Shown: positions 28,100-63,953, counted from the stretch's first letter. The stretch is 64,000 nt of DNA from Candidatus Doudnabacteria bacterium (GCA_028286905.1 JAQBQP010000002.1:383430-447429), one strand, 5' to 3'. A program made the numbers and translations. The notes: generated by a model not told the origin, from the sequence alone.

Positions 28100-28126
28100 A
28101 AAGGGGTATATTAAGACAAAAAATAA

Positions 28127-32882: not shown

Positions 32883-32904
32883 ACACACATTAAGCCGCAC
32901 ACAA

Positions 32905-32944
32905 GGATATATAGCAAGCGGGGCTATAGTGGATAAATATAGAC
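32905..32944 (+). repeat. About 31 bp conserved site, copy 1 (TATATAGCAAGCGGGGCTATAGTGGATAAATAT), between the divergent recombinase and HEPN-like genes
   Basis: 29 of 31 positions identical to 41335-41370 on the same strand. Confidence 0.7.
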
Positions 32945-32986
32945 AAAAAACTCTCTGTTTTTGCTTATATTTGTTAAAATACTGCC

Positions 32987-45200: not shown

Positions 45201-48200
45201 ATTTCCACCAATTACTTTTATCTCAGATTTTAATCCACCTAAGGGATTATACGTATTCGTTTGAGTCACTGCACTTGTTGTCGAAGAATAGAGATGACCT
45301 TTGCCGTCTGTCCCCGTGTCATACACGTAGGTGTTTTCTGTTCCGGTTGCTCCGGTGTAATCTTCAGTGAGTACTCTATTTATATTATCAAAGGTGTAAT
45401 TTGTAGTCTGACTTAAAGCGTCTACCTTCTGAGTTAAATTACCTGCGTCATCATAAACGTAAGCCCAGGTGCCATAAGTAGCATCGGCAGAAGCGTGAAG
45501 ATCTTGAGCAGTTAGATTTCTACCTAAACCATCGTAGGTAAAATTACGAACATTTCCAGAAGCATCGGTAATCTTTAATAGATCACCTAAGAAATCATAA
45601 ACATAATACGTACTATAGGTGCTACCGCTATTATGCTCATCGACCTGAATTAGGTTTCCATAAGCATTTTTATAGAAATCTTTGACTTTAGAATTTGCAT
45701 CATTTACAGTCAGTTTCCAGTCGTTATATGTGTTTGTGGTGGTACCTGCAGCATTTACAGAAGTTGTGATTCTATTCATTGGATCGTATGAGTAGACAGT
45801 ATAAAGTGCTGTGGTAATGGTTGGAGAAGTTTTAGTTGTTCCTATTGAGAAATATGGCAGAGATTCTTTATACAAGTTTCCCCTGCTGTCATATACATAA
45901 TCTTTTACCGAGAAATTACTGCCCTCTGCTTCTGTTCTTTCCTGTAATTTTCTACCTAGACCATCAAAATAGGTATAAACATCAACTGTTGTTGAAGAAT
46001 CTAGATAATTTGAAATCAAAGTCTTCACAGCACCAGAAGTATCTGTATAGATAGTAGTGTTTTTTGTAACCAACGTCGAAGGAGTAATTAAGTCCGGTTG
46101 ATCTTGTTCAACCAAACGATCTAGCCCATCATAAACGTTTTTAAACACTCTAGTATTAGGATCGGTTGTTTGTAAAACCTGTCCTGATGAATAATCATAC
46201 GTATTCGTTGTGACTTGAGAAAGTGGATTTGTTACCGTTGTTGGATACAGATGATAGGTATCATAAGAATACGATGTTGTTTTTCCTCTTGGGTCTGTAT
46301 CTACTGTAACGATTCCATAGGTACCATCATAAGTTTTTTGAGTATTAACAAATGTCGTACTCACTTTCCACATTTCGTGTTTAGTCTGATTTCCTTTTGT
46401 AACTGCTCCAAAAGATTGGGTATCATAATAATACTTATCCTCTTTTACTTTTGTAGCACTATGATCTGTTACAGAAATGTCATCGGGTAAACCAATAACA
46501 TTAGCTCCGTCTGTGGCATAGGTGTACGCGGTTGTAAAATCGTCAGTTCCAATATCAACGTAAGAACCATCGTCACTGCCAGTAACTTCACCTAGTTCAG
46601 TTTTCTGAGACACGTTTCCTGTTGAATTGTTATATAGGTAAGTTCTTGCAACATCTCGGTGTGTACTATCTCCGTCGTATGTTGAAGTGACAGTGCGGGT
46701 CACCCTTACAAATTTCTTTCCGCCTGTTAGATTGTAGCTATCCCATCTATTAATAACCTTTGAGAACAAACTGCCACTAGAATTAGCGACGGTCATGCGA
46801 TACATTTTTCCAATTTTCCAGTACTCATCGCTATACTCACCATGTGTGGAGTCACTTCCATTGCCTTGGTGAAAATATGAAGTCATTACATTTCCTGACG
46901 GATCTGTTTTAGTGATTACTCCAAAGCCTGCAAATTTACGGGTAGTAAAATCTCCACTGTCGAAATAAAAAGACCCTAAAGAATTCGAATATGTGTCGGT
47001 ACCGGTTGTTCCTAAACCATCGTTAGAAGTAACTTGATAAACTGTTTGGATTACATAAGGAAGTTTTGGGTTCAATCCGTTATAGCCAGACAGTGCTGAA
47101 GACTTGTAAGTAAACGTACTAGACCCACCAAAAGGAAAAGTTGTACTAGATAGTAGGTCTGTTGCTGCACTGTTGTTTATATAAATAGAAGTATACCCAT
47201 CCGTAATATCTGCCATCCCATCCCCATTCAAGTCTAAAATATCCGCGCTTGAACCATACCCGTTTGTAAAAGAGAATGTTCCAGGAGTATTCCAGCTAGT
47301 AGTATTCGAGGTCCAACCGTTACCAGTATTCAAATATGTTGTTCTATAAATTGCTCCGTACCAATTTATAGATTGGATCAAATCTGGTAAACCATCCCCG
47401 TTGACGTCCGCAAATCTAACCCCCAGATCTGAAGGATAGTACCCACTCAGATAAGAAGTTGTTAGTGCGGGTGTATAATCGGTGCTTGAAGTCCAGGTTC
47501 CTTTACCATCACCTAGATATGCGCTTGTATTAAACGTTGTACCTGTCCAAGCCAATCTTATAATGTCTTCCAAGCCATCACCGTTTAAATCTAAGAATGT
47601 AGCGTTATCGCCGCTTATAACAGGGAAAGTCCAGCTAGAACCCACGTCGCTGGTCCATCCAGAACCTGTGTTTAAATAAACATGTGCTGCGATTGAACCT
47701 CCCGAAATTGTATTTGATTGAAATATATCTGGAAGACCGTCTCCGTTTAAATCCACTATTCTCGTGCCAAAATCTGACCATAAATACGTAAAATTAATTG
47801 GAGAAGTCCAAGCCGTAGTTACTGTCCACCCACTGCCATTATTTATGTATGTGGCAGCTGTAATCGTACCAGAACTGTCTTTGTTCGAATATATTAAATC
47901 AGCCAAGCCATCGCCGTTTACATCAATAGCGTGAACATTAAAATCAATGTTACTTCCGGCATTAAATGATTTAAACGGGGTAGGAGCGTTGTATGCGGAA
48001 GACGCCGTCCAAGTGCCACTACTATTATTTAAATATGTAGCACGATAGTCAGTTCCGTTTGAAGCGGTGAAAGAAGTGATAATATCAGGCAAACCATCAC
48101 CATTTATGTCTGCAAATAAAGATCTTCCATCGAACGAGGTGTCTGATGGAAAAGACCAACTAGAATTCTGTGTCCAACCAGACGAAGTTGTGGACGTGTA

Positions 48201-50128: not shown

Positions 50129-50271
50129 TGTTGCTTTCGCTTTCAATCCGCTTTGAATCACTATTGAAAATCCGCATAGAAAGCGACCTATCCGGGTCAT
50201 TTCCCTATTTGGAAATATCCCCAAATACCCCTTATAATCCGTCTATATTCCTGGGACTGGACCGGCCCCTC

Positions 50272-50309
50272 CAGCCAGACCAAACACGTTCCCCGCTGAC
50301 CTAGCGGGG
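50272..50309 (+). repeat. att-like direct repeat, copy 2
   Basis: CAGCCAGACCAAACACGTTCCCCGCTGACCTAGCGGGG, followed directly by the ATCGCC hairpin module. Confidence 0.8.
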
Positions 50310-50319
50310 TTAAAAAAAT

Positions 50320-50352
50320 AAAATCGCCGAAGAGGCGATTTTTTGTTATGCT
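50320..50352 (+). promoter_or_regulatory. Terminator hairpin / extended -10 module (AAAATCGCCGAAGAGGCGATTTTTTGTTATGCT)
   Basis: Conserved module also at 28067, 53328, 61523, and weaker at 51703, 52414 and 63878. Confidence 0.55.
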
Positions 50353-50409
50353 AGATATGTATTAATGTCAACTTTAAAACCTGCAGATCAGCGGCTCTTC
50401 TGAAAATGA

Positions 50410-50943
50410 ATGAACAATATGGATGTGCTTCAAATCTTAAATACAATTTTTACCGGTTTTACTGTAATAGTGGCTATTATTGCAGTTATTTTGGCGTTTA
50501 AAATAGGGCAAAAACAAAATGAAATAAATAACCGGCTCTTATCCCTTCAAGATTACGTTGCGATATCTTTTATCCCTGATTCCCGCAACGGTGTTATAAA
50601 ATTACTCAACACTGGAAAATCAAATTTGTATTTGTGGGGGTTTGATTGGAGTTTTAATTCCGCTAATAACAACTATCACTATGAAAAAGCAAGGCTCATA
50701 AGCGCAGGCACAAACGACTCTTCGTACTATTGGATTCCTCTTCCAAAAAATATTGATAAAATTTCTACCACAACCAATTTTGATATCAAACTTTATTTAG
50801 AAGATGACTATGGAAATAAATGGGTTTCGGAGGGGGGAGGTGAGGCAAATCCAATAAAAATTATGAGCGATGAAAAAGAAGTTCCCGCCGCTGCAATTAC
50901 CATATGGTCTTATAAAACTTATAAAGATAAGTGGTCATTTTAA
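50410..50943 (+). CDS. Hypothetical membrane-anchored protein (cassette 1)
   Basis: 177 aa with one N-terminal transmembrane helix; AT-rich. Confidence 0.55.
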   Translation: MNNMDVLQILNTIFTGFTVIVAIIAVILAFKIGQKQNEINNRLLSLQDYVAISFIPDSRNGVIKLLNTGKSNLYLWGFDWSFNSANNNYHYEKARLISAGTNDSSYYWIPLPKNIDKISTTTNFDIKLYLEDDYGNKWVSEGGGEANPIKIMSDEKEVPAAAITIWSYKTYKDKWSF

Positions 50944-50980
50944 AACGGTATGGCGGACAAGCTGCCTCACTCTAATCAAA

Positions 50981-51012
50981 GTTCCAACTTCGTCCCATGT
51001 CCGCGGCCAATT
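50981..51012 (+). repeat. Cassette-junction motif copy M1 (GTTCCAACTTCGTCCCATGTCCGCGGCCAATTGA)
   Basis: One of nine same-orientation copies of a roughly 33 bp intergenic motif. Confidence 0.75.
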
Positions 51013-51093
51013 GACAAATACCATTAAATATGGTATTTTTTTATATTCAAGTTAAATTGGAGGATAACCCTTTCATCACAATGGAGTTTCGAC

Positions 51094-51588
51094 ATGCGTA
51101 TCTCTCGGAACAGTCTTGCCTACCGCATAGCCTTCGCCTTTGAGGACGAGAAACCCTCCCAGGTCGGGCTCTGCGAGCTTTGCTGGAGCGTCATTCTTAG
51201 CCCTATGGCACTCTTGTTCCACGGCGCGAAGATGGCGTGGCTGTACTTCTGGGGCCTTTTCATCGCTTGCAAACCAATCGGTACTGAAACGCGTTACGTC
51301 GGGCGATCATATGCGTCCCCCGATGGGTACGCCAAGATGACCCTCTGGGAGACCTACCCCCGGTGGCCGAAGATCCACGGAATCGTGACTCGTCCGGTGT
51401 ACCTGATCGGCGCGCTCGGCGGACTGGTCTTCCTCTACGTCACCTGGAAGATCCTCATCGGCATCGGCGCCTTCATGCTTCTGCTATTCTCGATTACCGC
51501 AGGAGTCGAAGGTTTGGAGAAACTCTACAACGGTCTCTACAACGCAGCCAACAGGAAAGGGCTGTGCCCGGTGGTGGAAGTGAAATGA
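51094..51588 (+). CDS. Hypothetical polytopic membrane protein in a GC-rich cassette
   Basis: 164 aa with about 4 transmembrane helices; local GC is about 58%, against about 38% in adjacent units. Confidence 0.5.
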   Translation: MRISRNSLAYRIAFAFEDEKPSQVGLCELCWSVILSPMALLFHGAKMAWLYFWGLFIACKPIGTETRYVGRSYASPDGYAKMTLWETYPRWPKIHGIVTRPVYLIGALGGLVFLYVTWKILIGIGAFMLLLFSITAGVEGLEKLYNGLYNAANRKGLCPVVEVK

Positions 51589-51611
51589 AGCAACGCTTCA
51601 ATGCGTGCAGA

Positions 51612-51645
51612 AAGCGCGGTGCCCCAAGGTGCCGCGCTTTTCTGA
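51612..51645 (+). terminator. Intrinsic terminator
   Basis: AAAGCGCGGTGCC-CCAA-GGTGCCGCGCTTTTCTG. Confidence 0.65.
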
Positions 51646-51664
51646 TAAATTTTTTACAATTGTC

Positions 51665-51698
51665 CTTCCAACTTCGTCCCATGTCCGCAGCCAATACT
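51665..51698 (+). repeat. Cassette-junction motif copy M2
   Basis: CTTCCAACTTCGTCCCATGTCCGCAGCCAATAC, followed by a weak hairpin and TGTTATACT. Confidence 0.75.
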
Positions 51699-51753
51699 TT
51701 TAATCGCCTAATAAGCGGTTTTTTGTTATACTTAGAACAATTAAATGACAATA

Positions 51754-52307
51754 TGAAAAAACTATTTTTATCAATCTTTGCCTTAGGATTAATCGGAGCG
51801 GGTTGCAACCAACAAACTGCTACGCCCACAACAAATAATCAACCTGAAAAAACCGTCTCCATCCCGGCTAGCAACACAACCACTTATGACGCTAAAGATT
51901 TTCAATTTCAAATATCTTACCCTAAAGACTGGACCGTTACACCCGCATCGGAAGCAGACCATGTAAAAGTAGGTTATCAATTTTCAAACTTCAAAAACAA
52001 CGAAACAGACTTTTACACGCTTGTAGTGACCAAAGAGCCAAACACTTTTACTCAACTTACCGGGTCTACAAAAGTTAAGTTACCTAACGGAATGGATGCA
52101 ACAGAGTATGACAATAAGTACGATAACCGGGTTACCGAACAAGTATTCCATATTCAACAAACTGGCTACTATTACACCCTAAGCTTTCAAGTACACCACG
52201 CTATTCCTAGCGATGGTACGGTAAATCCACCAGCTTTAAGCGCAGAAGACCTAACTGTTAGAGATTCACTTATCGCTTCATTTAAAATGACAGCTTCTTC
52301 AAGGTAA
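51754..52307 (+). CDS. Lipoprotein
   Basis: MKKLFLSIFALGLIGAGC signal peptide with a lipobox. The long 51363-52307 ORF in the track is a read-through artefact crossing the junction motif. Confidence 0.65.
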
Positions 52308-52321
52308 CCTCGTTAACTTCT

Positions 52322-52355
52322 GTTCCAACTTCGTCCCACAATTGCAGCAATGACC
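52322..52355 (+). repeat. Cassette-junction motif copy M3 (variant 3' half)
   Basis: GTTCCAACTTCGTCCCACAATTGCAGCAATGACC. Confidence 0.7.
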
Positions 52356-52454
52356 TTCATCTGGGATGTTTGTGCGGGAGCGTCAGCGAAGGCAAAAATA
52401 CTTTTTCGAAACTAAAAAATCGTCTCCATGACGATTTTTTGATATACTCAGCTC

Positions 52455-53267
52455 ATGTCAGAAATTCCACATCTTGATAGAGCCATTGGCCTTCCTTCTT
52501 CTGAAAGTCATGCCCAGGAAGAGTACGAATCCCATATTAGAGAAATTTATGAAACCAGGGGCGTAAATCCTTATGAAAATTTTGAATTGCCTAAAACAGA
52601 ACGCGACAAAGAGATCATTGATTTTGTTCAACAATCTTTGGATCAGTATCTTGCTATTTATAATCGTGAAAAAATAGTGAGCGTACCTGTTTCTAAAATT
52701 CATATTTTTTCAGAGAATGGAGTCAAGGACTTCACGAATGGTAATGTAGAAAAAGGATCTGCAGCTATAAAATTTGGGAGTATGCTAGTAGAGAGGCCTG
52801 CTTCAGATATACAGTTTGCGCTTAACGTTTTTCATGAGATGGTTCATTTAAAGTCGTACTCAGCGGTTCAAATAGTCAACCAACCAGAGGGACTGGAAAT
52901 AATTAACTATCGTTCAGGTTTTTCAGTTACAAGTCGCGAGGGTAAAAATTTATATTTTCAAGATTTAGAAGAAGGAGTGATTGGATTTCTCGTAAGAAGA
53001 TTTTACCAAGAACATGTTCAAAATAATACGATATTCTCCGAAAAGAGAGCCATGTACAACTATTCCAGAGATGAGGAGTATGGGAAATTGGAAGCTCTGA
53101 TCCAGGATCTTTGGGAAAAGAATCAAGATAAATTCGAAAATATAAAATCAATTTGGGATATTTTTATTAATACACAGTTGAATGGGAATTTATTACCAAT
53201 TGGTCGCTTAATTGAATCTACCTATGGTAAAGGATCATTTCGCAAACTAGGTGAAAATAATTTATAA
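52455..53267 (+). CDS. Hypothetical protein with HExxH motif (putative zinc metallopeptidase)
   Basis: 270 aa with the VFHEMVHLKSY motif. It is preceded by the AAAAAATCGTCTCCATGACGATTTTTTGATATACT module; the -10 ends about 7 nt before the ATG, so the mRNA may be leaderless. Confidence 0.5.
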   Translation: MSEIPHLDRAIGLPSSESHAQEEYESHIREIYETRGVNPYENFELPKTERDKEIIDFVQQSLDQYLAIYNREKIVSVPVSKIHIFSENGVKDFTNGNVEKGSAAIKFGSMLVERPASDIQFALNVFHEMVHLKSYSAVQIVNQPEGLEIINYRSGFSVTSREGKNLYFQDLEEGVIGFLVRRFYQEHVQNNTIFSEKRAMYNYSRDEEYGKLEALIQDLWEKNQDKFENIKSIWDIFINTQLNGNLLPIGRLIESTYGKGSFRKLGENNL

Positions 53268-53291
53268 TTATTTATTAATTGATCTATTTCA

Positions 53292-53327
53292 GTTTCCGAC
53301 TTCGTCCCCCAATCGCAGCCAGAAATT
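53292..53327 (+). repeat. Cassette-junction motif copy M4
   Basis: GTTTCCGACTTCGTCCCCCAATCGCAGCCAGAAATT, followed by the ATCGCC hairpin and TGTTAAACT (53328-53358). Confidence 0.75.
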
Positions 53328-53384
53328 AAATCGCCGAGCAGGCGATTTTTTGTTAAACTTAATATGTAATTAAGCAGAGCATTT

Positions 53385-53870
53385 ATGAAAAACATCAAAA
53401 CCAATCCCGCACTAAAGGATCTTGAATTACTTATTGGACATTGGACAACAGAGCTATCGAACGCTTCGTTTCTCAATGACCGATCAGCTGTCCTACAAGG
53501 CAATGCCTCTTTCGAATGGTTTGGGGACGGAGATTTTCTGGTTTTATACCAAGGGACAAAAAATGTCGATGCGGCGTGGGCGACATGGATTATCGGCCGA
53601 GATCAAGACACATCGGACTACACTATTCTTTATTTTGACGATCGACGTTTTTCTCGTGTCTACGAAATGAGCTTTAAAAAAGGCGTTTGGAAAATATGGC
53701 GTAATTCTCCAAAATTTATACAAAGCTTTAAGGGCGTAATAAGTAAGGATAAAAAAACAATCACGGGGCGCTGGAGAAAATCATCTGACGGAAAGCGTTG
53801 GGAACACGATTTTGATTTAGTCTATAAAAGAGTTAGCACAAAAAAGAAATTAACGTCAAAAAAGAGATAG
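53385..53870 (+). CDS. Hypothetical protein
   Basis: 161 aa soluble protein with a Lys-rich C-terminal tail. Confidence 0.55.
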   Translation: MKNIKTNPALKDLELLIGHWTTELSNASFLNDRSAVLQGNASFEWFGDGDFLVLYQGTKNVDAAWATWIIGRDQDTSDYTILYFDDRRFSRVYEMSFKKGVWKIWRNSPKFIQSFKGVISKDKKTITGRWRKSSDGKRWEHDFDLVYKRVSTKKKLTSKKR

Positions 53871-53911
53871 TCTTTTTTACCTCCATGTGCTTTATTAGAT
53901 CCGAGCTAACC

Positions 53912-53945
53912 GTTCCAACTTCGTCCCATCTCCGCAGCCAATACC
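53912..53945 (+). repeat. Cassette-junction motif copy M5
   Basis: GTTCCAACTTCGTCCCATCTCCGCAGCCAATACC. Confidence 0.75.
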
Positions 53946-54067
53946 GCTAGATCTAAGCCAAGCCGCTTGATTGTCGTAAAGATAGGTCTGTGCTAAAATT
54001 CTCGCAGTATTAGAAGGAGGAGTTCAAGCAGACAATATCCCCTCCTTAGCCCTTAACTAAGACCACA

Positions 54068-55156
54068 ATGCCTGAGAGATTTTTCGGAGATTTTCACGAT
54101 CAAAAGAACCCCATCAATCCAGAGAAAGTTGAGACTCACCATCGAATGGTTGTAGAATCCGCTCTAGAAGGACCTGAGGGCGAACATGCTCAATTGAGTA
54201 TCGCCTTAGATCAAGATGGCGTAGCCCGTAGGGTCAACTTCTGGGATCTGGATAAGACCTTGCTCCGAGCTGAACCGATACACGCTGTGGCTGTTACGGA
54301 GATCTTCCCGCACGTTCAGGATGTTGATGAACTGCGAAAGATCTACTTTGCAGGTTTCAAACTCGGCAATTCATTTCGAGAATGGGACCGGATGCACCGT
54401 ATTTACACTGAGGGTCAAAACCGCTTCAAGGACCCACAAGTGTACTTCGACGAAGTGATCGCAGCGGACAGCGAACGCCGCAAGGTAGACGAAGAAGGAA
54501 ACCCAACGCACGAGCGAGCTAACGACACGCTTCAGCGTTATGGCAAGATCGCCTATCAGCTCATGGCTGATCGACGGACTCAGGAAACCGAGGAAGGAAC
54601 ACCAAGCTTTTTCGAGAGCAACGGATTCCAACTGGAAGCCGCAGTACATCTGCTCCGCGCAAAATCGCGTATGGGCGAGGTTCATGTTTTTATGACCGCG
54701 AACCAGCAAGATTTCGCTCGGGCGTTAGTAGCGTTCTCTGGCTTATACAAGCATGGAATGTTCTTGGCCACAGATGAAACAATGGTTGGAGGCGGTAAAG
54801 ATATCGCGATCTTGAAGCTCATCGCGCAAATCGAGGCTCAAGGGATAAAGGTTCCTCGACACGACAAGCGTAGACTCGTAGTCTACGGCGACTCAGCTAC
54901 TGGAGATATCGGTAGCAGCAGCAAGATTACCGCTGCACATCCTGAGTTTCAATTCTCGGGCGGGCTGGTCACCGATGATCTTGCAGGAGTAGAAGACTGG
55001 AAACGCAAGATCAAGGAAGAAGAAGGTCTTCCCGAAGCCAAGCAACAGTTGACCGGAATATTTCGCACTGTCGACACCATCACACTTCCCAACGAAGACA
55101 TCGCTCGAAGCGAACGCGGAGTGCACAAGCTCGGTAAGAAACGTTCCCAGGTTTAG
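54068..55156 (+). CDS. HAD-superfamily hydrolase-like protein (GC-rich cassette)
   Basis: 362 aa with HAD motif I FWDLDKTLL and motif IV VYGDSATGD. The segment 54.0-58.6 kb has about 55% GC. Confidence 0.5.
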   Translation: MPERFFGDFHDQKNPINPEKVETHHRMVVESALEGPEGEHAQLSIALDQDGVARRVNFWDLDKTLLRAEPIHAVAVTEIFPHVQDVDELRKIYFAGFKLGNSFREWDRMHRIYTEGQNRFKDPQVYFDEVIAADSERRKVDEEGNPTHERANDTLQRYGKIAYQLMADRRTQETEEGTPSFFESNGFQLEAAVHLLRAKSRMGEVHVFMTANQQDFARALVAFSGLYKHGMFLATDETMVGGGKDIAILKLIAQIEAQGIKVPRHDKRRLVVYGDSATGDIGSSSKITAAHPEFQFSGGLVTDDLAGVEDWKRKIKEEEGLPEAKQQLTGIFRTVDTITLPNEDIARSERGVHKLGKKRSQV

Positions 55157-55241
55157 GTATTGAACTGTATAAGAACAACTTTACAACCGGCGGTCTCCAT
55201 TAGGAAACTGCCGGTTGTTGTTTTTCATGTTCTCTAATAAT

Positions 55242-55275
55242 AGTTCCAACTTCGCCCATGTCCGCAGCCAATACC
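55242..55275 (+). repeat. Cassette-junction motif copy M6 (inside the GC-rich segment)
   Basis: GTTCCAACTTCGCCCATGTCCGCAGCCAATACCA. Confidence 0.75.
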
Positions 55276-55339
55276 AGAACTCAAATGTCGCCGAAGCACG
55301 CAGCAATGACCATAATTGGATTCACAAAAAATATGTTAA

Positions 55340-55527
55340 GATTTTGAAGATGAAATAACTTTAGGCCAGCTTGGTGCTTTACCCTATCCTGAATTGCATC
55401 AATTTACAAAAGAATATTCTAAACGTGTCAGCGAAGAAGCTCATATCTGGCTACGTGAAAAGGGAATGAAAATACAGATCTTTACAGTCAAATATCCTAC
55501 TGCTATACTCAGGCATAACTTGAATGA
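55340..55527 (+). pseudogene. Possible gene remnant (ORF fragment lacking a start codon)
   Basis: A 62-codon open frame ...LGQLGALPYPELHQFTKEYSKRVSEEAHIWLREKGMKIQIFTVKYPTAILRHNLNEDE* that begins right after a stop, with no ATG/GTG/TTG near its start; AT-rich DNA embedded in the GC-rich segment. Confidence 0.2.
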
Positions 55528-55563
55528 GGACGAATAAAAACCACCTTCTCAGAGAGGCGTAAA

Positions 55564-57558
55564 ATGAAGAAACGCTCTCCGAACGGTGGAGCGCTTAGTA
55601 TTAGAGAGGTGTTGGCCACCCAGACGGAGTTGGAACTGATAAATCGTTTCCTAGGCGGCGAAGAACGCGCCTTTCAGGAACTTGTTGAGCGTTATCAGAC
55701 TAGACTTCTGAACTTCATCTATCGCACAATCGGCGACAGAGAGAAGGCGGAAGACCTTGTCCAAGAAACGTTCATACGAATTTACCGCCATCTGCATCGC
55801 TTTGACCGCGACAAGAAGTTTTCGACTTGGGCCTACACGATCGCATCGAACCTGGCGAAGAACGAACTCCGAAATCGTTCGCGGAATCCGCTCGTCCTAT
55901 TTCAGACAATCCAAGGAAATTGGGAAGATGAGGATCGGCCTCTGCAATTCGAAGATACCCAAGCACGCCCAGACGACATGTTCAACAAACGTCATCTTCG
56001 CGAGTTGGTTGACGATGCAGTAGCCTTACTCCCCGTGCATCACCGCTCTGTGTTCATAATGCGAGAGTTGGAGGGCAAGAGCTATGAAGAGATTGCCGAC
56101 GAAACCGACACAAACCTTGGGACAGTGAAGTCCAGGTTGAACCGGGCTAGGAACGCTTTCGCAGAACTGATCGAAGATCATATCGAGCAAGAGGAATTTT
56201 CACAGTCCAAACCCCTCCCTCCCAACGGAGCGCTGACAATGCCCATAGAAACGGCTATCAGACCTACTCAGCCCTCCGCAAACGGAACGGCTCCGGATGG
56301 TCTTAGGGACACACTGCGAGGTGTGTTCATGTGGTGGCTGGATTTGGAGAACGCGCATATCGTTTTTCAGATTCTGAAACCGCCGAAGAAGTTCGACGAT
56401 TTCGCAAACATTTTTTCGCAAATCCGCGCCGAAATTTGGCAAAGAAATGCGAAAAGAGCTTTGCCGCCAACGTCCCTGATGACGAAGGCGCTGCCCGTGA
56501 TAAAGCAGATTGCGGAGCGAGCCAAGCAGATGCGACTCCCGAATGTTCCCGCCGTACCCGGAAGCGAGCCTGAAACACTCCAACCCCCCGACAACGATAT
56601 GAGCGGTAAATATTCCGGAAGCAACAACCGTCGGCGCGTCGAGAGTGAGTCAGCCGTCGTCAAGCGGCCCCAGACCAAGGACGAACTGGAACACGAAAAA
56701 GCGCGGATCCGCGCTAAGCTCGTCGAATACCTGGGCAGACCGGCGAACTGGGAAGTTCTTCAGAGCACCACCTACTCGCATTTCTGCAAATCAGCCGGAA
56801 TGAGTCTGGCGCGCAATGAATTCAACATCATGTTCTCCGAAGTCAACGCCGAGCTCAAGCAGCTAAGAAGAACGGTGCGCGCGGCATCGACGAACGGTTC
56901 TGCGCCGCACGTTGAGCCCGCTAGTTCTGTCGTTGGCATAATCGCGCCGGCGACACCAGCTGTACCAATCGCGCTCGTAACACCACCATCGCCGGCAAAC
57001 ACTTCAGCCAACACGACAATGCCAGCAAAGATCGTCTGGCTAGCTGAGAATGGTAAGCATGGTCAGATGTACGCCGCCGACAGAATTCAGTTGGAATCCA
57101 TGCTCAGCAAGTTGCTAGTCGCCGAGCCTACGATCACCGTGCAAAAGGCCTACTCTCACCTGAAACCTCCGGTGAGTGAGGTTACTTTCAAGAAGCACTT
57201 CGCGGCTGCACAGTCACGTCTTGCCCCTTCGGCGGATGCCGAAGAAGTTGTAGCAACGGAAGCGCTTCCGGTCTTCGAACCCGAAGCAGCGGCCGAGACA
57301 ACAAAGGCAGAAGTGCCGACAATTGCCGAAGTCACTTCGGCCACGACGATCGAAGCCGCAGAGCCAGCAACGACGGTCGAAGATGCGCCAGCAAAGCAGG
57401 CTCGCAAGAGCATTCGGCTTCGTAGCGATGAAGTGTTCTTCCGAGCCGTACCGAACGATGATGGTACTTGGGCAGTAGAACAGCACTACCGGAGCCTGGA
57501 CGCCCTGACCATGCTAAAGATGTTGGAGCTGGCCGCCCAGCTTATGACCCAGGCGTAA
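55564..57558 (+). CDS. ECF-type sigma-70 family factor with a roughly 460 aa Ala/Pro/Thr-rich C-terminal extension
   Basis: N-terminal sigma region 2 (LVERYQTRLLNFIYRTIGDREKAEDLVQETFIRIY) and region 4 (RELEGKSYEEIADETDTNLGTVKSRLNRAR); about 58% GC. Confidence 0.8.
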   Translation: MKKRSPNGGALSIREVLATQTELELINRFLGGEERAFQELVERYQTRLLNFIYRTIGDREKAEDLVQETFIRIYRHLHRFDRDKKFSTWAYTIASNLAKNELRNRSRNPLVLFQTIQGNWEDEDRPLQFEDTQARPDDMFNKRHLRELVDDAVALLPVHHRSVFIMRELEGKSYEEIADETDTNLGTVKSRLNRARNAFAELIEDHIEQEEFSQSKPLPPNGALTMPIETAIRPTQPSANGTAPDGLRDTLRGVFMWWLDLENAHIVFQILKPPKKFDDFANIFSQIRAEIWQRNAKRALPPTSLMTKALPVIKQIAERAKQMRLPNVPAVPGSEPETLQPPDNDMSGKYSGSNNRRRVESESAVVKRPQTKDELEHEKARIRAKLVEYLGRPANWEVLQSTTYSHFCKSAGMSLARNEFNIMFSEVNAELKQLRRTVRAASTNGSAPHVEPASSVVGIIAPATPAVPIALVTPPSPANTSANTTMPAKIVWLAENGKHGQMYAADRIQLESMLSKLLVAEPTITVQKAYSHLKPPVSEVTFKKHFAAAQSRLAPSADAEEVVATEALPVFEPEAAAETTKAEVPTIAEVTSATTIEAAEPATTVEDAPAKQARKSIRLRSDEVFFRAVPNDDGTWAVEQHYRSLDALTMLKMLELAAQLMTQA

Positions 57559-57596
57559 ACAAACAACCCAAAGGAGAAACAGGAGAAAAACGAAAA

Positions 57597-57633
57597 CTCC
57601 GGCACCGATCTAATCGATGTCGGAGTTTTTTTC
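57597..57633 (+). terminator. Intrinsic terminator after the sigma-factor gene
   Basis: CTCCGGCACCGATCTAATCGATGTCGGAG followed by TTTTTTTC. Confidence 0.65.
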
Positions 57634-57708
57634 TTAATAACGCTTTGGCGTGCATGGACTCAACTGCACTAAAGAAGCTTAAAAAAATATTCAGTAAAAA
57701 AACAAAGC

Positions 57709-57749
57709 ACCGCGGTATACTTCGACAATTTGTCGAAGTATACCGCGGT
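57709..57749. terminator. Perfect 41 bp palindrome (20 bp arms) between convergent genes
   Basis: ACCGCGGTATACTTCGACAA-T-TTGTCGAAGTATACCGCGGT, with a T-tract on the minus-strand side. Confidence 0.6.
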
Positions 57750-57754
57750 AGCGC

Positions 57755-58618
57755 TTAGCAGGACGCCCTGGCCCTTTGGTGGGATGAGCGTTTTCTTCTT
57801 TCCTCCGTTCTTTTGATTTCCCCTTTCGTCGCCGGACGCGGGAAGCTTGGCACTTCCTGCTGGAACGACCAGATCGTTTCCGCGAATCCGGTCAGATTGT
57901 ACACTCGCGAGGCGACCGAGCGAGCCTGCCCTTTGAATGCACCAACAACGGCATGAACCATACCGGCCGTCAGCTCTTCACAGGACGCCTTCATAAGCGA
58001 CCCACTGAAGCTCTGCTGAACGACATAGCGAACTTCACGTTCGTTCAGAAAGTCACGCCCTGGGACATACAGAACGTCCAGATCGCCTTCGAACGAACCG
58101 TCATAGCCGCCGCAGATCGCATCGTCAACGAGCTGAGCGTTGACGGAAAGCCGCTTCAGCGAAATGACACGCGAGCCCTGCTTCGGCCTGAACTGCGCTG
58201 GCAGCGTACCCCACTGACCAACAGCACGACCCTGATCGTGAGGCGTGCGAACTTCCGCGTGCACGCCGACCAGCCGATCGCCAATCTCCCCCCTGGAGAG
58301 GCGGACGATGGACTTGGCCAGCCGATCATTGGTATCGTCAGGCCTTACCATCTGAACGAAGCTGATGAAGCTCCGGTTGTCGACAACGAAGCCAGAGGAG
58401 TCTGGCCAGGCCGTCAGAGAGACGTTGACCATGTACTGGTCGTCCTCGACGTCTGAACCAATACGCCCCCTCGTATCTCGAGAGACTGGAAAGTCCTTCA
58501 AGTACAAGGTCACCGGCGCAGAACCTTTTGGTTGCACTGCAACCTCCAGTTGAAAGTGATCGCCTAAGCTTTGGCGATATAGAAGAGTAGCATATAACTG
58601 CCCTTTTTTCAAGTTCAA
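57755..58618 (-). CDS. Hypothetical protein (GC-rich cassette)
   Basis: 287 aa ORF at about 58% GC, convergent with the sigma-factor gene. Many overlapping ORFs in this region are GC-driven artefacts. Confidence 0.5.
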   Translation of the reverse strand: MNLKKGQLYATLLYRQSLGDHFQLEVAVQPKGSAPVTLYLKDFPVSRDTRGRIGSDVEDDQYMVNVSLTAWPDSSGFVVDNRSFISFVQMVRPDDTNDRLAKSIVRLSRGEIGDRLVGVHAEVRTPHDQGRAVGQWGTLPAQFRPKQGSRVISLKRLSVNAQLVDDAICGGYDGSFEGDLDVLYVPGRDFLNEREVRYVVQQSFSGSLMKASCEELTAGMVHAVVGAFKGQARSVASRVYNLTGFAETIWSFQQEVPSFPRPATKGEIKRTEERRKRSSHQRARASC

Positions 58619-58635
58619 GTGTGTTGGTAAAAACA

Positions 58636-58660
58636 GTTCGATTTTTTGTTATACTTTATA
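58636..58660 (+). promoter_or_regulatory. Right half of the hairpin/extended -10 module (CAGTTCGATTTTTTGTTATACTTTATAT) followed by an orphan ATG and junction motif M7
   Basis: Module order is inverted relative to the other junctions: module, then ATG, then motif. Confidence 0.4.
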
Positions 58661-58680
58661 TATGAAACCGACACTAAACT

Positions 58681-58707
58681 TGTTCCAACTTCGCCCATGT
58701 CCGCAGC
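58681..58707 (+). repeat. Cassette-junction motif copy M7 (3'-truncated)
   Basis: GTTCCAACTTCGCCCATGTCCGCAGCA, after which similarity ends. Confidence 0.7.
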
Positions 58708-58777
58708 ATAAAAAAAGTACACCGCTATCATGATGTACTTTTTATTTCACTTACTTTTTGTAAAAGTTAATCAATAC

Positions 58778-59545
58778 CTAACCTAATTTTGTAATAGCTG
58801 TTTCCATTTCATCTAACATATATTGTCCCTCTGTCGGGTATTCTGCCAACGCTTTTTGAAATAGCGGAAAGTAGATTTCTCTTGTTTCAGCAACAATTCT
58901 TCGCTGCTTTTCAGGGGTTGTTCCAGCCAAACTTCTTAAATTGTGCAGCCTGTCAGCCATTTTAGCTAATATAGTTTTTGCAGGAGCGTTGCTCAAGTTT
59001 TCAATATAAAAATGATGGGCTTCTGCTTTAGTCTTTAATTCTTGTCCATCAACTTTTGGCTTTGTCAAAGTGATAACTATGTCAGCAACCTGTGAATTGA
59101 AAACCTTCCTCAAGCGAAACTCAGCAACCTCTTTCCATTTAGAGTAAGCTTGGGTTGCATTTCCAAACATAGCTGAATCTTCAACTGAATCATGTAAAAG
59201 ACATGCGATAATTAAATCTGGATCTTTAATTTTGCACTCATCAATTAAAATTAAGGCTACCGCTCTTAAGTGTTCAAAGTAACGCTCACCGGTATCACGC
59301 TCATGCGGGCGATGAGCTTCTTTACCCAAATCGTAAGCAAAATCAATTGTATTGATGACTTCTATTGGCAAGCCTTCTAATCTTTTGAGAAAGCTAGCTC
59401 GATTTTCCAATTCTACTTTTTCGTATTCTGCTTCAACCGGATTACTAATGCGCGCGGCCTCCTCATCTTCTATAAAAGGATGGTTTATTTCCTTGCCCTC
59501 CCCCGCTGATTGAGCCGCGAGTCTTGCCTCAATATTTTGATCCAT
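58778..59545 (-). CDS. HD-domain (p)ppGpp hydrolase-like protein (RelA/SpoT hydrolase-domain-only, small alarmone hydrolase type)
   Basis: 255 aa with HD motifs RYFEHLRAVALIL, LLHDSVEDS and MADRLHNLRSL as in the SpoT hydrolase domain; no synthetase domain. Confidence 0.7.
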   Translation of the reverse strand: MDQNIEARLAAQSAGEGKEINHPFIEDEEAARISNPVEAEYEKVELENRASFLKRLEGLPIEVINTIDFAYDLGKEAHRPHERDTGERYFEHLRAVALILIDECKIKDPDLIIACLLHDSVEDSAMFGNATQAYSKWKEVAEFRLRKVFNSQVADIVITLTKPKVDGQELKTKAEAHHFYIENLSNAPAKTILAKMADRLHNLRSLAGTTPEKQRRIVAETREIYFPLFQKALAEYPTEGQYMLDEMETAITKLG

Positions 59546-59667
59546 ACTTGTAAGTTAATTTATACAATTATTATAGCTTTTTTTGAATCTACGTGCTAAC
59601 CTTCGCCTTTATAACCTCAAGCAGTATTTTAATCGCCTCTAAGGCTATTTTTTGATATAGTTTAGAC

Positions 59668-60138
59668 ATGAATGAAAATAGAGAAAATCAGCGAGAAATA
59701 GGGACCAATCCTTTCTGGGTTCGGCCAAACCCAGAAAAGGAGCAAGGAGAAATTCAAAGGGCTGTTCAAGAATTTCTGAAAGTACAGCCCAGTGGAGAGG
59801 TACTCCAACAAGTTATCGATCAGATTAATATATCTCCAATTGTTGATCTTGCCGATGATACCTGGAGCCTTTTGGAAAACACAGACTCTTACGACATCAG
59901 ACCAGGATTTCTAGAAGATGCTGAAAACCTAACTGAAGAATATAATTCCCAATTATCTGTAGAAAATAAGCGTAACTTTAAAGCATTGGTTCAAGGCTTT
60001 AAAAGAAACCAACCGATGGAAGTCCCTATAATCATAAAAAGTAATGATCGACTTCATTTACTGAGCGGTAATACTCGCCTTATGATTTCGAGAGCGTTAT
60101 CCATTAAACCGAAGGTTATTATTGCAGAGCTTCCATAA
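59668..60138 (+). CDS. Hypothetical protein
   Basis: 156 aa acidic soluble protein. Confidence 0.5.
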   Translation: MNENRENQREIGTNPFWVRPNPEKEQGEIQRAVQEFLKVQPSGEVLQQVIDQINISPIVDLADDTWSLLENTDSYDIRPGFLEDAENLTEEYNSQLSVENKRNFKALVQGFKRNQPMEVPIIIKSNDRLHLLSGNTRLMISRALSIKPKVIIAELP

Positions 60139-60230
60139 TTTCCGCTCTAGCGCAGTTTTCTGTTTCATCTATATGATTTGGATATGAATGAAAGCCCTCT
60201 CATGAGGTTCCTTGCGTTAAATTTATAAGC

Positions 60231-60686
60231 TTATGAGTACGTACTGATAAGTAATAAAAAGAATATTAGTCCATTCAATGTAATCAAGGCTGTCCTAATC
60301 CAATGAGTTTCTCTCAATCGTTTCATTAATGGACTGGTTGAACTTTGATGCTCAGCACTTATTTTTCTCTCCCAGCGTCCCCACATACTCCCTGTAAGCA
60401 CAAGGATCATATATTGAATTAATACAGCGAGCAAAAGTAATGGGAAGAGAATTTTTGCAGGATGCACCCAAAGCAGTATGGTACTACAAAGTACCAATAT
60501 TCCCGTTGGAATAAATACCAAATACGGTAGTACCCTCCAATGAACGCCCCGGACCTTATGGAATAACTCAGTATCGTCAACCACCATCCATGAGCGCAAT
60601 GTTATTAACTCCATGGACCAGATCAGGCCAATCCCGTAAAACGAGAGCGCTCCGCAAAGCAAAAATAAGATATTAGGGAAATGCAT
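60231..60686 (-). CDS. Hypothetical membrane protein (4 transmembrane helices)
   Basis: 151 aa hydrophobic ORF. Confidence 0.5.
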   Translation of the reverse strand: MHFPNILFLLCGALSFYGIGLIWSMELITLRSWMVVDDTELFHKVRGVHWRVLPYLVFIPTGILVLCSTILLWVHPAKILFPLLLLAVLIQYMILVLTGSMWGRWERKISAEHQSSTSPLMKRLRETHWIRTALITLNGLIFFLLLISTYS

Positions 60687-60715
60687 AATATTTTTTTATT
60701 ATTTCTTTAGATTTC

Positions 60716-61180
60716 TTATACTACTAGCGCAACAAGAAGCGAAAAACCTCCGACCAGTAATACCACTTCGCGTATCCAGGAGAAGATGAGCCACAATCTT
60801 GTACCCGTAATGATTTCTGTGGACGAAGGAACGAATGTTCCGGCCTTACCCCATTCAATAATCTTTGGAGCCAGGTATGCTCCGCTTAAAATTGCTGTAA
60901 CTATATAGCAGATTCCGGCAAGAAGAATGAGCATACGTCGCTCAGGATTGTTCCAATTGAGCACTAACGCCGTCACCATTACAAGAACTGTCGCAACTTG
61001 CAGGGCAATCCAGAAGTTTTTTTCCATCGTACCATTTTGATTTATCTTCCCAAACGACACAGGAGGATTCGCAAACCACGTGGGCATGACAACAATGCTT
61101 TGGTACATTCCTATACCGACAACCGTTACCAAAAGAAAGCTAGCAATAATTAGAACCAAACTTGCAGGTGTAAAATTCAT
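60716..61180 (-). CDS. Hypothetical membrane protein (DUF1772-like, 4 transmembrane helices)
   Basis: 154 aa; adjacent to and co-oriented with the 60231-60686 gene. Confidence 0.5.
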   Translation of the reverse strand: MNFTPASLVLIIASFLLVTVVGIGMYQSIVVMPTWFANPPVSFGKINQNGTMEKNFWIALQVATVLVMVTALVLNWNNPERRMLILLAGICYIVTAILSGAYLAPKIIEWGKAGTFVPSSTEIITGTRLWLIFSWIREVVLLVGGFSLLVALVV

Positions 61181-61488
61181 ATTCGTGTCATATTAAGATT
61201 AAAATTTGACACTTGTCGAGAGAAAAGCAAAAGAGCAGACTCTCTATCAAGCATCTTTCAAACACAAAAATATCTCTAGAGTATATCCAGTGTTTGAAAG
61301 AACTGCGATTCGGAGTTTTGCTCCTAGATAGAGAATCTACTCTTAAAACGTAAGTGAGTATATTCTTTTCAGAAATTTCCTAAAAGGGAATTTCCTAGAT
61401 CAGTTCTTATTTATATAATACGCTGATAATGGTAAAAACTCAAGTAACCACAATACTGTGGCTACTTATAGTACTCGTCAAATAAAAA

Positions 61489-61522
61489 GTTCTAACATTG
61501 TCCTATGTTTGCAGCCATACTC
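61489..61522 (+). repeat. Cassette-junction motif copy M8 (degenerate)
   Basis: GTTCTAACATTGTCCTATGTTTGCAGCCATACTC, followed by hairpin TACTCGCCCCTTAGGCGGTTTTTT and TGTTATGCT (61523-61553). Confidence 0.6.
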
Positions 61523-61560
61523 TACTCGCCCCTTAGGCGGTTTTTTGTTATGCTTTAAAT

Positions 61561-62124
61561 ATGTTTTACGATATAGGCATAGGAATTTTATTGTCGTTGG
61601 GTTTAGCAAATCTTTTCGATACACACTTAACTGCAAGTTGGATTATTTTAGGAGTGGTCTTCTCTCTTATTCCGGACTTGGATTATTTGTTTCATCTCCA
61701 AAAAGGAGGCTCAACAAAAAATGCTCACGAACATAGGGACTACTGGCACTACCCAGTGGTATTTATTCCATTTGGCATGTTGCTTATTGCTCTACTTGCC
61801 AATTGGCATTACGCTGTTCTTTTTCTTTTTGCCACCCTGCTTCATTTTATCCACGATAGCATCGGGATCGGATGGGGTGTACAATGGCTCTATCCTTTTA
61901 ACTCAAACCATTATTCTTTTTTCTACCACTACGAACCTAGCGACAGAAGACTAGCTCGAAAAAATCTTTACATTTGGAACCATGATGAAATAAATACGTT
62001 ATCAAAGAAACATGGAGACGACGAATGGGTAAAAAATATTTATTTTAAATTACATCCTTATGGACTAATTGAATACGCTGTTTTTATAATAGCGCTTGTG
62101 ATACTAATTTTTGTTATTGGCTAA
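61561..62124 (+). CDS. Membrane-bound metal-dependent hydrolase (YdjM/DUF457-like)
   Basis: 187 aa with several transmembrane helices and His-rich motifs (HEHRDYWHYP, HFIHDSIGIGWGVQW). Confidence 0.55.
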   Translation: MFYDIGIGILLSLGLANLFDTHLTASWIILGVVFSLIPDLDYLFHLQKGGSTKNAHEHRDYWHYPVVFIPFGMLLIALLANWHYAVLFLFATLLHFIHDSIGIGWGVQWLYPFNSNHYSFFYHYEPSDRRLARKNLYIWNHDEINTLSKKHGDDEWVKNIYFKLHPYGLIEYAVFIIALVILIFVIG

Positions 62125-62127
62125 AAT

Positions 62128-62160
62128 CGTTCCCGCTTCGTCCGATGTGGCCAGTCTAAA
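62128..62160 (+). repeat. Cassette-junction motif copy M9 (degenerate)
   Basis: CGTTCCCGCTTCGTCCGATGTGGCCAGTCTAAA. Confidence 0.55.
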
Positions 62161-62237
62161 AACGAAAGAATACCGAACCCAAACAAATTTGAAATCTTTG
62201 TCAAAGTACTTCAACAGGAAATTAACGGCCTTAACTT

Positions 62238-62834
62238 ATGCCCAGTATATATACCCAAATTGCATATTTGTCTTGGAACGCAATACTCTTGGTTTGGCTG
62301 CCCGGTTATTTTACGGGTAAACGCACCATACAAAGACCAAATCCAATTCGCCGAGCCTTTGCATTCGCATTGATAATTGCCGGATTTATGTTTTTGTTTT
62401 CCAATTCTGGACCTGGAAATTCTTTTGCAGAACGCTTTCTAGCTGTCCCCCATCTTTTTATTACTCCCTCTACGGTACCTTTCGGCATAATCGGCCTCAT
62501 CATTGACCTCACAGCCATAGTCTTTGCGATATGGGCACGTATAGCCTTAGGCAGAAATTGGTCTAATGCCATCGCACTAAAAGAAAACCATGAACTAGTA
62601 CAGACCGGACCATATGCTATAGTTAGACATCCAATTTATACTGGCTTGGTATTCGCAGCATTTGGTACCGCCTTGACCATAGGCAGACTTACTGACTACA
62701 TTGGTGTCATACTACTGTTAGTAGCAATTCTTATTCGGATTCAAGATGAAGATGCGCTTATGGCCGAACAGTTTTCAGAATCGCATCCTGCATATAGACA
62801 ACGGACTAAAAAATTGGTTCCGTTTGTTTGGTAA
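62238..62834 (+). CDS. Isoprenylcysteine carboxyl methyltransferase (ICMT/PEMT) family membrane methyltransferase
   Basis: 198 aa with the GPYAIVRHPIYTG signature and about 5 transmembrane helices. Confidence 0.8.
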   Translation: MPSIYTQIAYLSWNAILLVWLPGYFTGKRTIQRPNPIRRAFAFALIIAGFMFLFSNSGPGNSFAERFLAVPHLFITPSTVPFGIIGLIIDLTAIVFAIWARIALGRNWSNAIALKENHELVQTGPYAIVRHPIYTGLVFAAFGTALTIGRLTDYIGVILLLVAILIRIQDEDALMAEQFSESHPAYRQRTKKLVPFVW

Positions 62835-63868: not shown

Positions 63869-63877
63869 TAATATCAA

Positions 63878-63905
63878 CCGATCGCCTCTCAGGCAATTTT
63901 TTGTT
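63878..63905 (+). promoter_or_regulatory. Weak copy of the hairpin/extended -10 module (CCGATCGCCTCTCAGGCAATTTTTTGTTATAGT)
   Basis: Same organisation as the other junction modules. Confidence 0.4.
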
Positions 63906-63953
63906 ATAGTTTAAGTACACACAACATATATAATTAGAGGTAAAGAAAACACC

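Follow-up and report, generated by a model that had tools for sequence, protein, structure and literature searches.

Nine same-strand copies of a short junction motif bound a row of gene-sized units downstream of a tRNA-Gln gene in a 64-kb window of a metagenome-assembled genome of Candidatus Doudnabacteria (Patescibacteria, or candidate phyla radiation [CPR]). The window, which is the whole stretch of DNA analyzed here, comes from a 540-kb contig. We read the motif as the element-side (P-type) half-site of a family of large serine recombinases (LSRs) that targets tRNA-Gln, and the array as a stack of non-autonomous cassettes. The probability of this reading is estimated at about 65%. According to this proposal, DNA would be integrated by the LSR family at the tRNA-Gln 3' end. 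The terminal bases of the motif, GCAGCCA, would be a copy of the tRNA acceptor end that contains the crossover point, and the 17-mer GTTCCAACTTCGTCCCA would be the outer recognition part, similar to the T-loop region of the tRNA except for 5 extra bp after GTTC. With every insertion, a P arm and core would remain at the far end of the insert, and the tRNA would stay intact. The nine copies would then record at least nine insertions, with the newest near the tRNA and the oldest and most decayed furthest from it. A typical unit would consist of a terminator/extended −10 module, one gene, and a P arm, and would lack a recombinase of its own. The LSR would be supplied in trans by Rep/LSR elements of about 5 kb or by islands like the one found here at 28 to 50 kb. 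The outcome would be an integron-like build-up of self-expressing cassettes of mixed origin, by a mechanism nearest to that of the composite islands of the staphylococcal cassette chromosome (SCC).

The motif copies were collected by repeat finding and an ungapped scan of the 64 kb. All nine were on the plus strand: M1 (50981 to 51013, 30.3 bits), M2 (51665 to 51697, 32.5 bits), M3 (52322 to 52354, 31.3 bits), M4 (53293 to 53325, 24.9 bits), M5 (53912 to 53944, 30.3 bits), M6 (55243 to 55274, 27.7 bits), M7 (58682 to 58713, 25.8 bits), M8 (61489 to 61521, 21.1 bits), and M9 (62129 to 62161, 18.2 bits). Each ends the cassette of the same number. No copy was found on the minus strand or outside 50.98 to 62.16 kb of the window. 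A profile hidden Markov model built from 22 copies recovered precisely these nine in the window, with E values from 1e-7 to 4e-3 in a search space of 1.16 Mb. A previous sequence-only reading of this DNA had described nine same-strand, intergenic copies of a conserved motif of about 33 bp. The number and the strand were correct, with four coordinates off by one, and all nine copies do sit between long open reading frames (ORFs). The conserved length, however, had to be revised. Only three copies lay within ≤3 mismatches of the quoted 33-mer (shuffled sequences yielded 0); the invariant part is the 17-mer, which is followed by about 5 variable bases and then by GCAGCC(A).

Conservation of the copies was graded. 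From M1 to M9, the 17-mer carried 0, 1, 0, 3, 0, 1, 1, 4, and 3 changes; M6 and M7 each had a 1-nt deletion, M8 was degenerate, and M9 was the most degenerate. M1 contains the putative P-type half-site and core (GTTCCAACTTCGTCCCATGTCCGCGGCCAATTG), and M3 has the CACAATTGCAGC variant that also occurs in the relatives L105 and L106 (loci of relatives are given L numbers). The 5' edge of the conserved block is sharp, at GTTCC, and the sequence upstream of it was unconserved. Motif scores dropped with distance from the tRNA (Spearman rho −0.82, permutation P = 0.005), which fits insertion at the tRNA-proximal end; in L106, the drop away from the tRNA was monotonic. A further, partial motif downstream of M6 (55276 to 55310; ..GTCGCCGAAGCACGCAGCAATGACC), which is similar to the 3' half of the M3 variant, may be a remnant junction.

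The 3' end of the motif was matched to tRNA-Gln in L017, a relative that is syntenic with the window on both sides and in which 1.25 kb corresponds to 34 kb of the window. The tRNA-Gln gene of L017 ends ..GGGCAGCCA (..GCAGCCA) and continues with ATACTTTTAATCGCC..GGCGGTTTTTTGTTA, which is the 3' end of M2 plus the hairpin/promoter module that directly follows M2. Window positions 51687 to 51728 were 95% identical to the post-tRNA-Gln sequence of L017. Therefore, the 3' third of the motif equals the tRNA-Gln acceptor end, GCAGCCA(ATAC); the 5' part shows a loose likeness to the tRNA T-arm. The arm-core-module order at M2, M4, and M8 is the same as the tRNA-core-module order of L017, except for the left arm. 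Cassette and chromosomal sites would then have their right half in common, and each insertion would regenerate both site types and so allow stacking. M7 was orthologous to a motif and terminator in L017, and homology between L017 and the window picked up again at 62190.

The relation of the motif to LSRs was seen in other relatives. In L036, tRNA-Gln is followed by a 5.5-kb element with an LSR, Rep, and four other genes, which ends in TTTCCAACTTCGTCCCATGTCCGCAGCCA; the LSR ORF overlaps tRNA-Gln on the opposite strand. The sequence after TTTCCAACTTCGTCCCATGTCCGCAGCCA, a terminator and ..gaactgttcgacgcccttc, directly follows the tRNA in the uninterrupted loci L033 and L038. Thus, at the native flank of L036, the motif stands where the tRNA would be expected, and the junction looks like an attR. 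The motif likewise forms the far end of elements of about 5 kb in L105, L106, and L002 and, in a variant form, in L040, and the LSR gene lies at the near end of all of them, next to the target. The LSR of L105 was 93% identical to that of L036, in a backbone that was 86% identical and with wholly different cargo. The LSRs of L106, L002, and L040 were 74%, 43%, and 35% identical to that of L036, respectively. The hosts of the motif span a GC content of 0.28 (L040) to 0.55 (L002, where the target is seemingly not a tRNA), and the sole gene common to the L036, L002, and L040 elements is the LSR. The LSR ORFs of L031 (8391 to 9989) and L036 (8393 to 9973) cross the antisense strand of tRNA-Gln and both end ..LPGQGSNLRMEASKAPALPLGYRA, so the attachment site would lie inside the 3' end of the recombinase gene. 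At a threshold of E < 1e-60, the family has over 3,100 member proteins; those few matches that bear an organism name were annotated as Patescibacteria. In IMG/VR, LSR relatives were convergent to genes for tRNA-Trp, -Asp, -Ser, -Glu, -Arg, -Gln(CUG), and -Asn (L044, L049, L054, L067, L072, L075, L076, L083, L084, L087, L088, and L098); the far end of L098 has a tRNA-Asn-like arm, GGTTCCAAACCTATCACGGGAGCAGA, without a 5-bp shift.

The half-sites were assigned from the spacing within the arms. In all 6 of the 6 pairs compared, GTTC and CAGC were 23 nt apart in the arm and 18 nt apart in tRNA-Gln; one pair involves the arm of another type of LSR island, unrelated to the motif, at the L106 junction. 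The arm of L040, GTTCCAACTAAATCCCAACTGTCCAGCCA, differs from the local tRNA-Gln end by an insertion of CAACT after GTTC. As reported previously, the LSR attP half-site is 25 bp long, and the motif for the zinc ribbon domain, at positions 16 to 24 in attP, is shifted by 5 bp toward the crossover in attB (PMC3783163). Because the 5-bp offset matches this rule for attP versus attB, the motif was read as a P-type half-site and the tRNA T-arm/acceptor as a B-type half-site. The motif starts about 24 to 25 bp from the shared CAGC, and the sharp 5' edge would then be set by the limit of the half-site. We infer that the crossover occurs within CAGC(CA), most likely at AG. The predicted sites of the L036/L105 LSR are the motif plus the GAATTCAAAATCATG.. 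arm as attP and the tRNA-Gln 3' end plus terminator as attB. By eye, the right-hand arms have common A/T-rich starts, and those of LSR elements also have a TTTTTGA(R)G stretch. When tRNA 3' ends were aligned locally, only L040 and the no-shift case L098 were retrieved. A generalized "+5 template" scan over tRNA-adjacent LSR loci gave noise and missed the known L036 arm as well.

Genomes were found to differ by whole units at these junctions. In L106, two tandem LSR elements are followed by four motif-bounded LSR-less units of 0.7 to 2.2 kb, and a junction consists of the P arm of island A, the core, and the P' of element B. L001 has three motif copies within 2 kb after tRNA-Gln, and L011 has three in 1.7 kb. 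Breakpoints at the junctions, for which the sequence-only reading had proposed a comparison of strains, were seen among L017, L036, L105, and L106. A wider genome and metagenome scan with a pattern that required GCRGC at a fixed spacing gave genuine arrays or copies only in L001, L002, L009, L011, and L017, and most metagenome matches were chance matches in high-GC coding sequence. Since this pattern was restrictive, the distribution of the motif is under-sampled. Scanning of viral contigs with the 17-mer returned only single matches inside coding sequence, which look like chance. In the third motif copy of L001 (7671 to 7735), 18 inserted nt separate GTTCCAACTTCGTCC from CCAGAGACGCAGC, near the boundary of the invariant 17-mer and the tRNA-like part. 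In L009 (1500 to 1760, minus strand), three consecutive pseudo-tRNA 3' ends (..GGGTTCAAGACCCTGACAGTCAGCT, ..GGACTCGAAGACCTTGCCAGCT, and ..GTTTCGAGTCCCTGACCGGCAGCT) lie just upstream of the first motif copy, whose variable part tracks the last of the three.

The units of the window, delimited by the motif cores, are mostly single-gene and 0.6 to 3.4 kb long. Cassette 1 (50313 to 51009) carries a module (50316 to 50352) and a gene for a 177-aa protein (50410 to 50943), and cassette 2 (to 51693) carries a gene for a 164-aa protein (51094 to 51588). A module and a gene are also present in cassette 3 (to 52350; module 51698 to 51732, lipoprotein-like gene 51753 to 52307), cassette 4 (to 53321; module 52414 to 52448, HEMVH-motif protein gene 52455 to 53267), and cassette 5 (to 53940; module 53326 to 53359, 161-aa gene 53385 to 53870). 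Cassette 6 (to 55270) holds a HAD-like gene (54068 to 55156, GC content 0.51). Cassette 7 (to 58709) is composed of a gene for an extracytoplasmic function (ECF) sigma fusion (55564 to 57558, plus strand), a 287-aa gene (57755 to 58618, minus strand), and an "empty" unit. Cassette 8 (to 61517) has an HD-domain gene (58778 to 59545, minus strand) and small genes at 59668 to 60138 (plus strand), 60231 to 60686 (minus strand), and 60716 to 61180 (minus strand). Cassette 9 (to 62157) has a module (61522 to 61554) and a YdjM gene (61561 to 62124), after which the conserved flank begins, with an ICMT gene at 62238 to 62834.

The cargo of these cassettes is of mixed, partly foreign origin. Four cassette genes had a GC content at third codon positions of 0.52 to 0.75 (0.75 at 51094 to 51588 and 0.52 to 0.64 at 54068 to 58618) versus 0.30 to 0.38 in core genes. 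The sharp alternation of base composition between units, described previously, is therefore present at third codon positions, and the view that the junctions bound gene-sized units of unrelated, partly foreign cargo is supported. No cargo was common to the window cassettes and any relative, and each genome carried different cargo. The same cassette was not found elsewhere, the homologues found being only 42 to 44% identical; PADLOC gave no match for the ten cassette proteins tested, and PHROGs gave none for the eight covered. A 42%-identical homologue of the cassette 4 protein, in L107, is itself a one-gene unit. It is flanked by a perfect 23-bp direct repeat, CCACCATTCCCCAAGTCATTCGA (9902 to 9924 and 10876 to 10898), with a module-like hairpin/promoter after the first repeat copy and no tRNA nearby, and it may belong to a second cassette system with a different junction motif. 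A perfect palindrome of 20 + 20 nt at 57709 to 57749, between the convergent high-GC genes of cassette 7, is probably a bidirectional terminator imported with the foreign segment.

The module itself is an intrinsic-terminator-like hairpin, AAATCGCC-loop-GGCGATTTTTTGTTATACT, fused to the extended −10 TTTTTTGTTATGCT. A pattern search for the hairpin plus TTTTTTGTTATACT yielded eight copies in the interval from 50.3 to 63.9 kb, every one of them on the plus strand. From repeat families and a terminator scan, module copies on the plus strand were listed in cassettes 1, 3, 4, 5, and 9 (as above) and at 28067 to 28100, 59625 to 59661, and 63874 to 63910, with a partial one of T-run and −10 only at 58639 to 58664. 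The copies were 70 to 90% alike and restricted to the region from tRNA-Gln to dnaX. The earlier statement that a hairpin and −10 follow most motif copies was right about the module and too broad about its placement. The module stands directly after the motif solely at M2, M4, and M8 and about 60 nt after M3; M1 and M7 are followed by other terminators, and M5, M6, and M9 by nothing comparable. Motif and module are separable, because the module occurs without the motif at 28067, 59625, and 63874 of the window and also in the relatives L033, L034, and L035. Most module copies end 6 to 7 nt ahead of an ATG (e.g., 50316 to 50361, 52414 to 52457, 59625 to 59670, and 61522 to 61563). This suggests that the module is a compact adaptor of terminator, promoter, and leaderless start. 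With eight terminator and extended −10 modules ahead of cassette genes, their promoters being predicted, most cassettes appear to carry their own terminator and promoter, often with a leaderless ATG. The empty unit around M7 (58639 to 58745) consists of promoter, motif, and terminator; an ATG at 58662 within it starts a 23-codon micro-ORF that reads through M7.

The tRNA-Gln(UUG) gene lies at 27914 to 27988 on the plus strand (ARAGORN and Rfam). Its 3' end, GGTTCGATCCCTGCCCGGGCAGCCA, would serve as the chromosomal (B-type) arm and as the anchor of the variable region. It adjoins a reductase gene, as likewise in L017, L031, L033, L034, L036, and L038, and core genes (ATP synthase, lepA, murJ, ftsW, murD, and mraY) occupy the left part of the window. 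The variable region from tRNA-Gln to dnaX measures about 44 kb in the window versus 5.5 kb in L034. At the tRNA-Gln 3' end, a 22-kb island is inserted (27989 to 50271), flanked by a 40-bp repeat at 27983 to 28023 and 50272 to 50312; it is missing from L017. By alignment, its distal junction (50244 to 50312, plus strand) is composed of a pseudo-tRNA arm (..CCGGCCCCTCCAGCCA) and then a repeat of the post-tRNA-Gln sequence. The 40-bp repeat is real, and the previous view that the array, said to start at the distal att repeat, is anchored at this island was supported. Pfam identified a C5 methylase, a HATPase protein, an LSR, two Tc/Rhs-like giant genes, and a helix-turn-helix protein as island cargo. 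The LSR gene (31560 to 33023, minus strand; Resolvase, Recombinase, and Zn_ribbon_recom domains in Pfam) encodes the sole recombinase found in the window. The giant SpvB/RHS/FG-GAP (Tc-toxin-like) genes, at 34796 to 41245 and 42156 to 49424 on the minus strand, encode 2,149 and 2,422 aa and are an unusual cargo for a small CPR genome. A strong match to LOOT RNA (RF03000, 75.7 bits) was located at 31419 to 31532 on the minus strand, directly 3' of the LSR gene and overlapping the start of the ORF at 30863 to 31513. No match to LOOT RNA was obtained in L031, L036, L105, L106, L040, L039, or L002, and a role as guide or partner of the LSR was rejected given its absence from other LSR loci.

Several observations weigh against the proposal of P-type half-sites and stacked cassettes. 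Canonical LSRs do not recombine hybrid sites (PMC3783163), and so repeated insertion at an occupied tRNA-Gln would need relaxed pairing or regenerated attB-like sites; the L106 junction indicates that occupied sites are used nonetheless and that tandem LSR elements do form. An LSR of the L036 type, cognate for the 17-mer arm, was not found in the 64-kb window. The window LSR is only about 35% identical to that type (34 to 37% to the L036 and L002 LSRs), and its island ends in a different arm and has a 40-bp direct repeat that is atypical of an LSR product. The linkage of the motif end with the LSR end holds in the relatives and not inside the window, whose cassettes have no LSR. Neither circular forms nor empty sites were observed, and no cassette occurred identically at two positions. 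By eye, the full site showed no clear dyad symmetry, and the right-hand arms were only loosely alike. Finally, the motif was absent from L033 and L034, though a variable region is present, and from the 9.9 kb downstream of tRNA-Gln in L031; the system is therefore sporadic.

A broader interpretation, held only tentatively, is that the array represents a serine-recombinase counterpart of the integron in Patescibacteria, with tRNA-Gln as the platform, cassettes captured in trans, and exchange across hosts with GC contents of 0.28 to 0.55. A cassette would then comprise a P-type half-site of about 29 bp together with terminator, extended −10, and leaderless start, and the LSRs of small Rep/LSR episomes would capture, stack, and possibly excise such cassettes. 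This would require an LSR that uses hybrid (P-B') sites productively, beyond the rule of attP × attB.

Among the alternatives, decay of larger elements fared best, though we consider it unlikely. The motifs would be attR scars of full LSR or other elements that had lost their backbone, and the units would never have been mobile cassettes. This agrees with the full-size elements that end in the same motif, with the degraded distal copies, and with the canonical LSR rules, which disfavor recombination of hybrid sites. However, no LSR or Rep remnants or pseudogene fragments were found in any of the nine units. The build of module, one gene, and arm was stereotyped in at least five of the nine units and recurred in L106, L001, and L017. 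In L001 and L017, LSR-less single-gene units occupy the youngest position, directly against tRNA-Gln, and empty promoter-motif-terminator units exist.

It is improbable that the junctions are scars of a tyrosine integrase or another recombinase in ordinary tandem tRNA islands whose direct repeats copy the tRNA 3' end, with the LSR link being incidental. Elements with a tyrosine integrase typically form tandem arrays at tRNA genes (PMC7192596), the 22-kb island has a 40-bp direct repeat, and the motif resembles a tRNA 3' half. On the other hand, Pfam detected no tyrosine recombinase, IntI, or Phage_integrase domain among the window ORFs scanned, in line with the earlier remark that no IntI-type integrase was visible, and no tyrosine recombinase was present among the called genes of L036, L105, and L106. 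The repeat is a conserved variant with a 5-bp insertion and substitutions that stays invariant though the host tRNA-Gln sequences differ, and five LSR elements end in the motif.

The motif and terminator could also constitute a conserved 3' untranslated region or small-RNA module, with a C/U-rich seed or a protein-binding or processing site. In 7 of 9 copies, a stop codon precedes and a terminator follows; the motif is unstructured and pyrimidine-rich, and the empty units, in which the motif lies about 26 nt after a promoter and ahead of a terminator, are built like an sRNA. As the explanation of the array, this is nonetheless very improbable. M7, M8, copy 3 of L106, and copy c of L011 follow opposite-strand genes, and no Rfam family matched the motif at the gathering threshold or even at E < 5. 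The native tRNA-flank junctions, the LSR elements, and the +5 geometry would be left unexplained, and 17 invariant bases without covariation in hosts with GC contents of 0.28 to 0.55 are a better fit to a protein-DNA site or recent spread. A secondary RNA role of the motif may exist.

Local amplification, in which motif and module spread within the locus by duplication or homologous recombination and the genes were then shuffled, has an even smaller chance of being correct. The likeness of the module copies and their confinement to the region from tRNA-Gln to dnaX are in its favor, but the same 17-mer is present at the ends of LSR elements and in unrelated contigs and hosts, where modules, terminators, and cargo differ.

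A true integron, or a sedentary chromosomal integron with homogeneous attC sites, has next to no likelihood left: same-strand repeats do bound one- or two-gene units of heterogeneous composition, but no IntI was found among the ORFs scanned, the cassettes have their own predicted promoters, the pyrimidine-rich motif cannot self-pair, and there is no attC-like imperfect palindrome on either strand, z-scores being mostly unremarkable. When the M2, M4, and M8 units were folded as DNA, both strands gave only the short terminator hairpin, with the motif unpaired or its pairing not conserved, as the sequence-only reading had anticipated in noting that motif and hairpin are not a canonical attC. The cassette outline of that reading was thus correct and its assignment to the integron family was wrong; it did not include the tRNA-Gln 3' end within the motif, the LSR in the neighboring island, or the motif at the ends of LSR elements in relatives. 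An ECF-sigma or sigma-54 promoter, a dif/Xer site, a CRISPR repeat, the initiation of mutagenic homology site of a diversity-generating retroelement, and an IS91/IS605 end were dropped, because no fitting consensus, symmetry, or partner genes were seen by eye.

The closest known system is the SCC composite island. Ccr proteins are LSRs; judged by domain architecture, the LSR here is probably not an orthologue of Ccr. In SCC, tandem elements stand at the orfX/rlmH 3' end with insertion repeats, and pseudo-SCC elements lack a recombinase (PMC6243372; bioRxiv 10.1101/336396). Here, a similar layout of tandem, repeat-bounded elements that adjoin a single conserved gene at its 3' end, some of them without a recombinase and with varied cargo, was observed in the nine window units and in the two LSR elements and four LSR-less units of L106. 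Unlike SCC, the system described here is found in Patescibacteria with tRNA-Gln rather than rlmH (orfX) as the target, its units are mostly single-gene and 0.6 to 3.4 kb long with a built-in predicted terminator and promoter, and its repeat is a 29-bp P-type arm that would imitate the tRNA. In tandem arrays of integrative elements, each further insertion at the 3' end of a tRNA gene restores the site, pushes older elements outward, and leaves repeated tRNA-like ends (PMC7192596). Those arrays usually involve a tyrosine integrase carried by each unit and true tRNA copies as repeats, whereas the present array is LSR-associated, most of its units lack an integrase, and its repeat is a modified mimic that is conserved. 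The half-site of about 25 bp, with an outer motif 5 bp further out in attP, is like that of the Listeria A118/LI integrase (PMC3783163). Classical serine integrases integrate once and leave inert attL and attR, in contrast to the tandem sites that bound recombinase-less cassettes here. With integrons, the array shares an ordered, same-strand row of mixed-origin cassettes by a fixed platform and a decay gradient consistent with newest proximal; it differs in that no tyrosine recombinase (among the ORFs scanned), folded attC, or common promoter (Pc) was found and the cassettes are predicted to be self-expressing. A literature search on the 17-mer and on the combination of LSR, tRNA, and Patescibacteria gave no match.

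If the proposed reading is true, these loci would be a natural case of the 5-bp attP/attB offset, with the tRNA T-arm as attB and a mimic with a 5-bp insertion as attP. The LSR family is very large, has short and predictable tRNA-derived sites, and may tolerate hybrids, and it is thus of interest for genome engineering. The 17-mer would be a simple marker for such arrays in metagenomes. It would also follow that a second, mechanistically different route to integron-like cassette arrays exists, and that CPR bacteria, for which few routes of gene flow are known, gather and express foreign single genes at one safe site.

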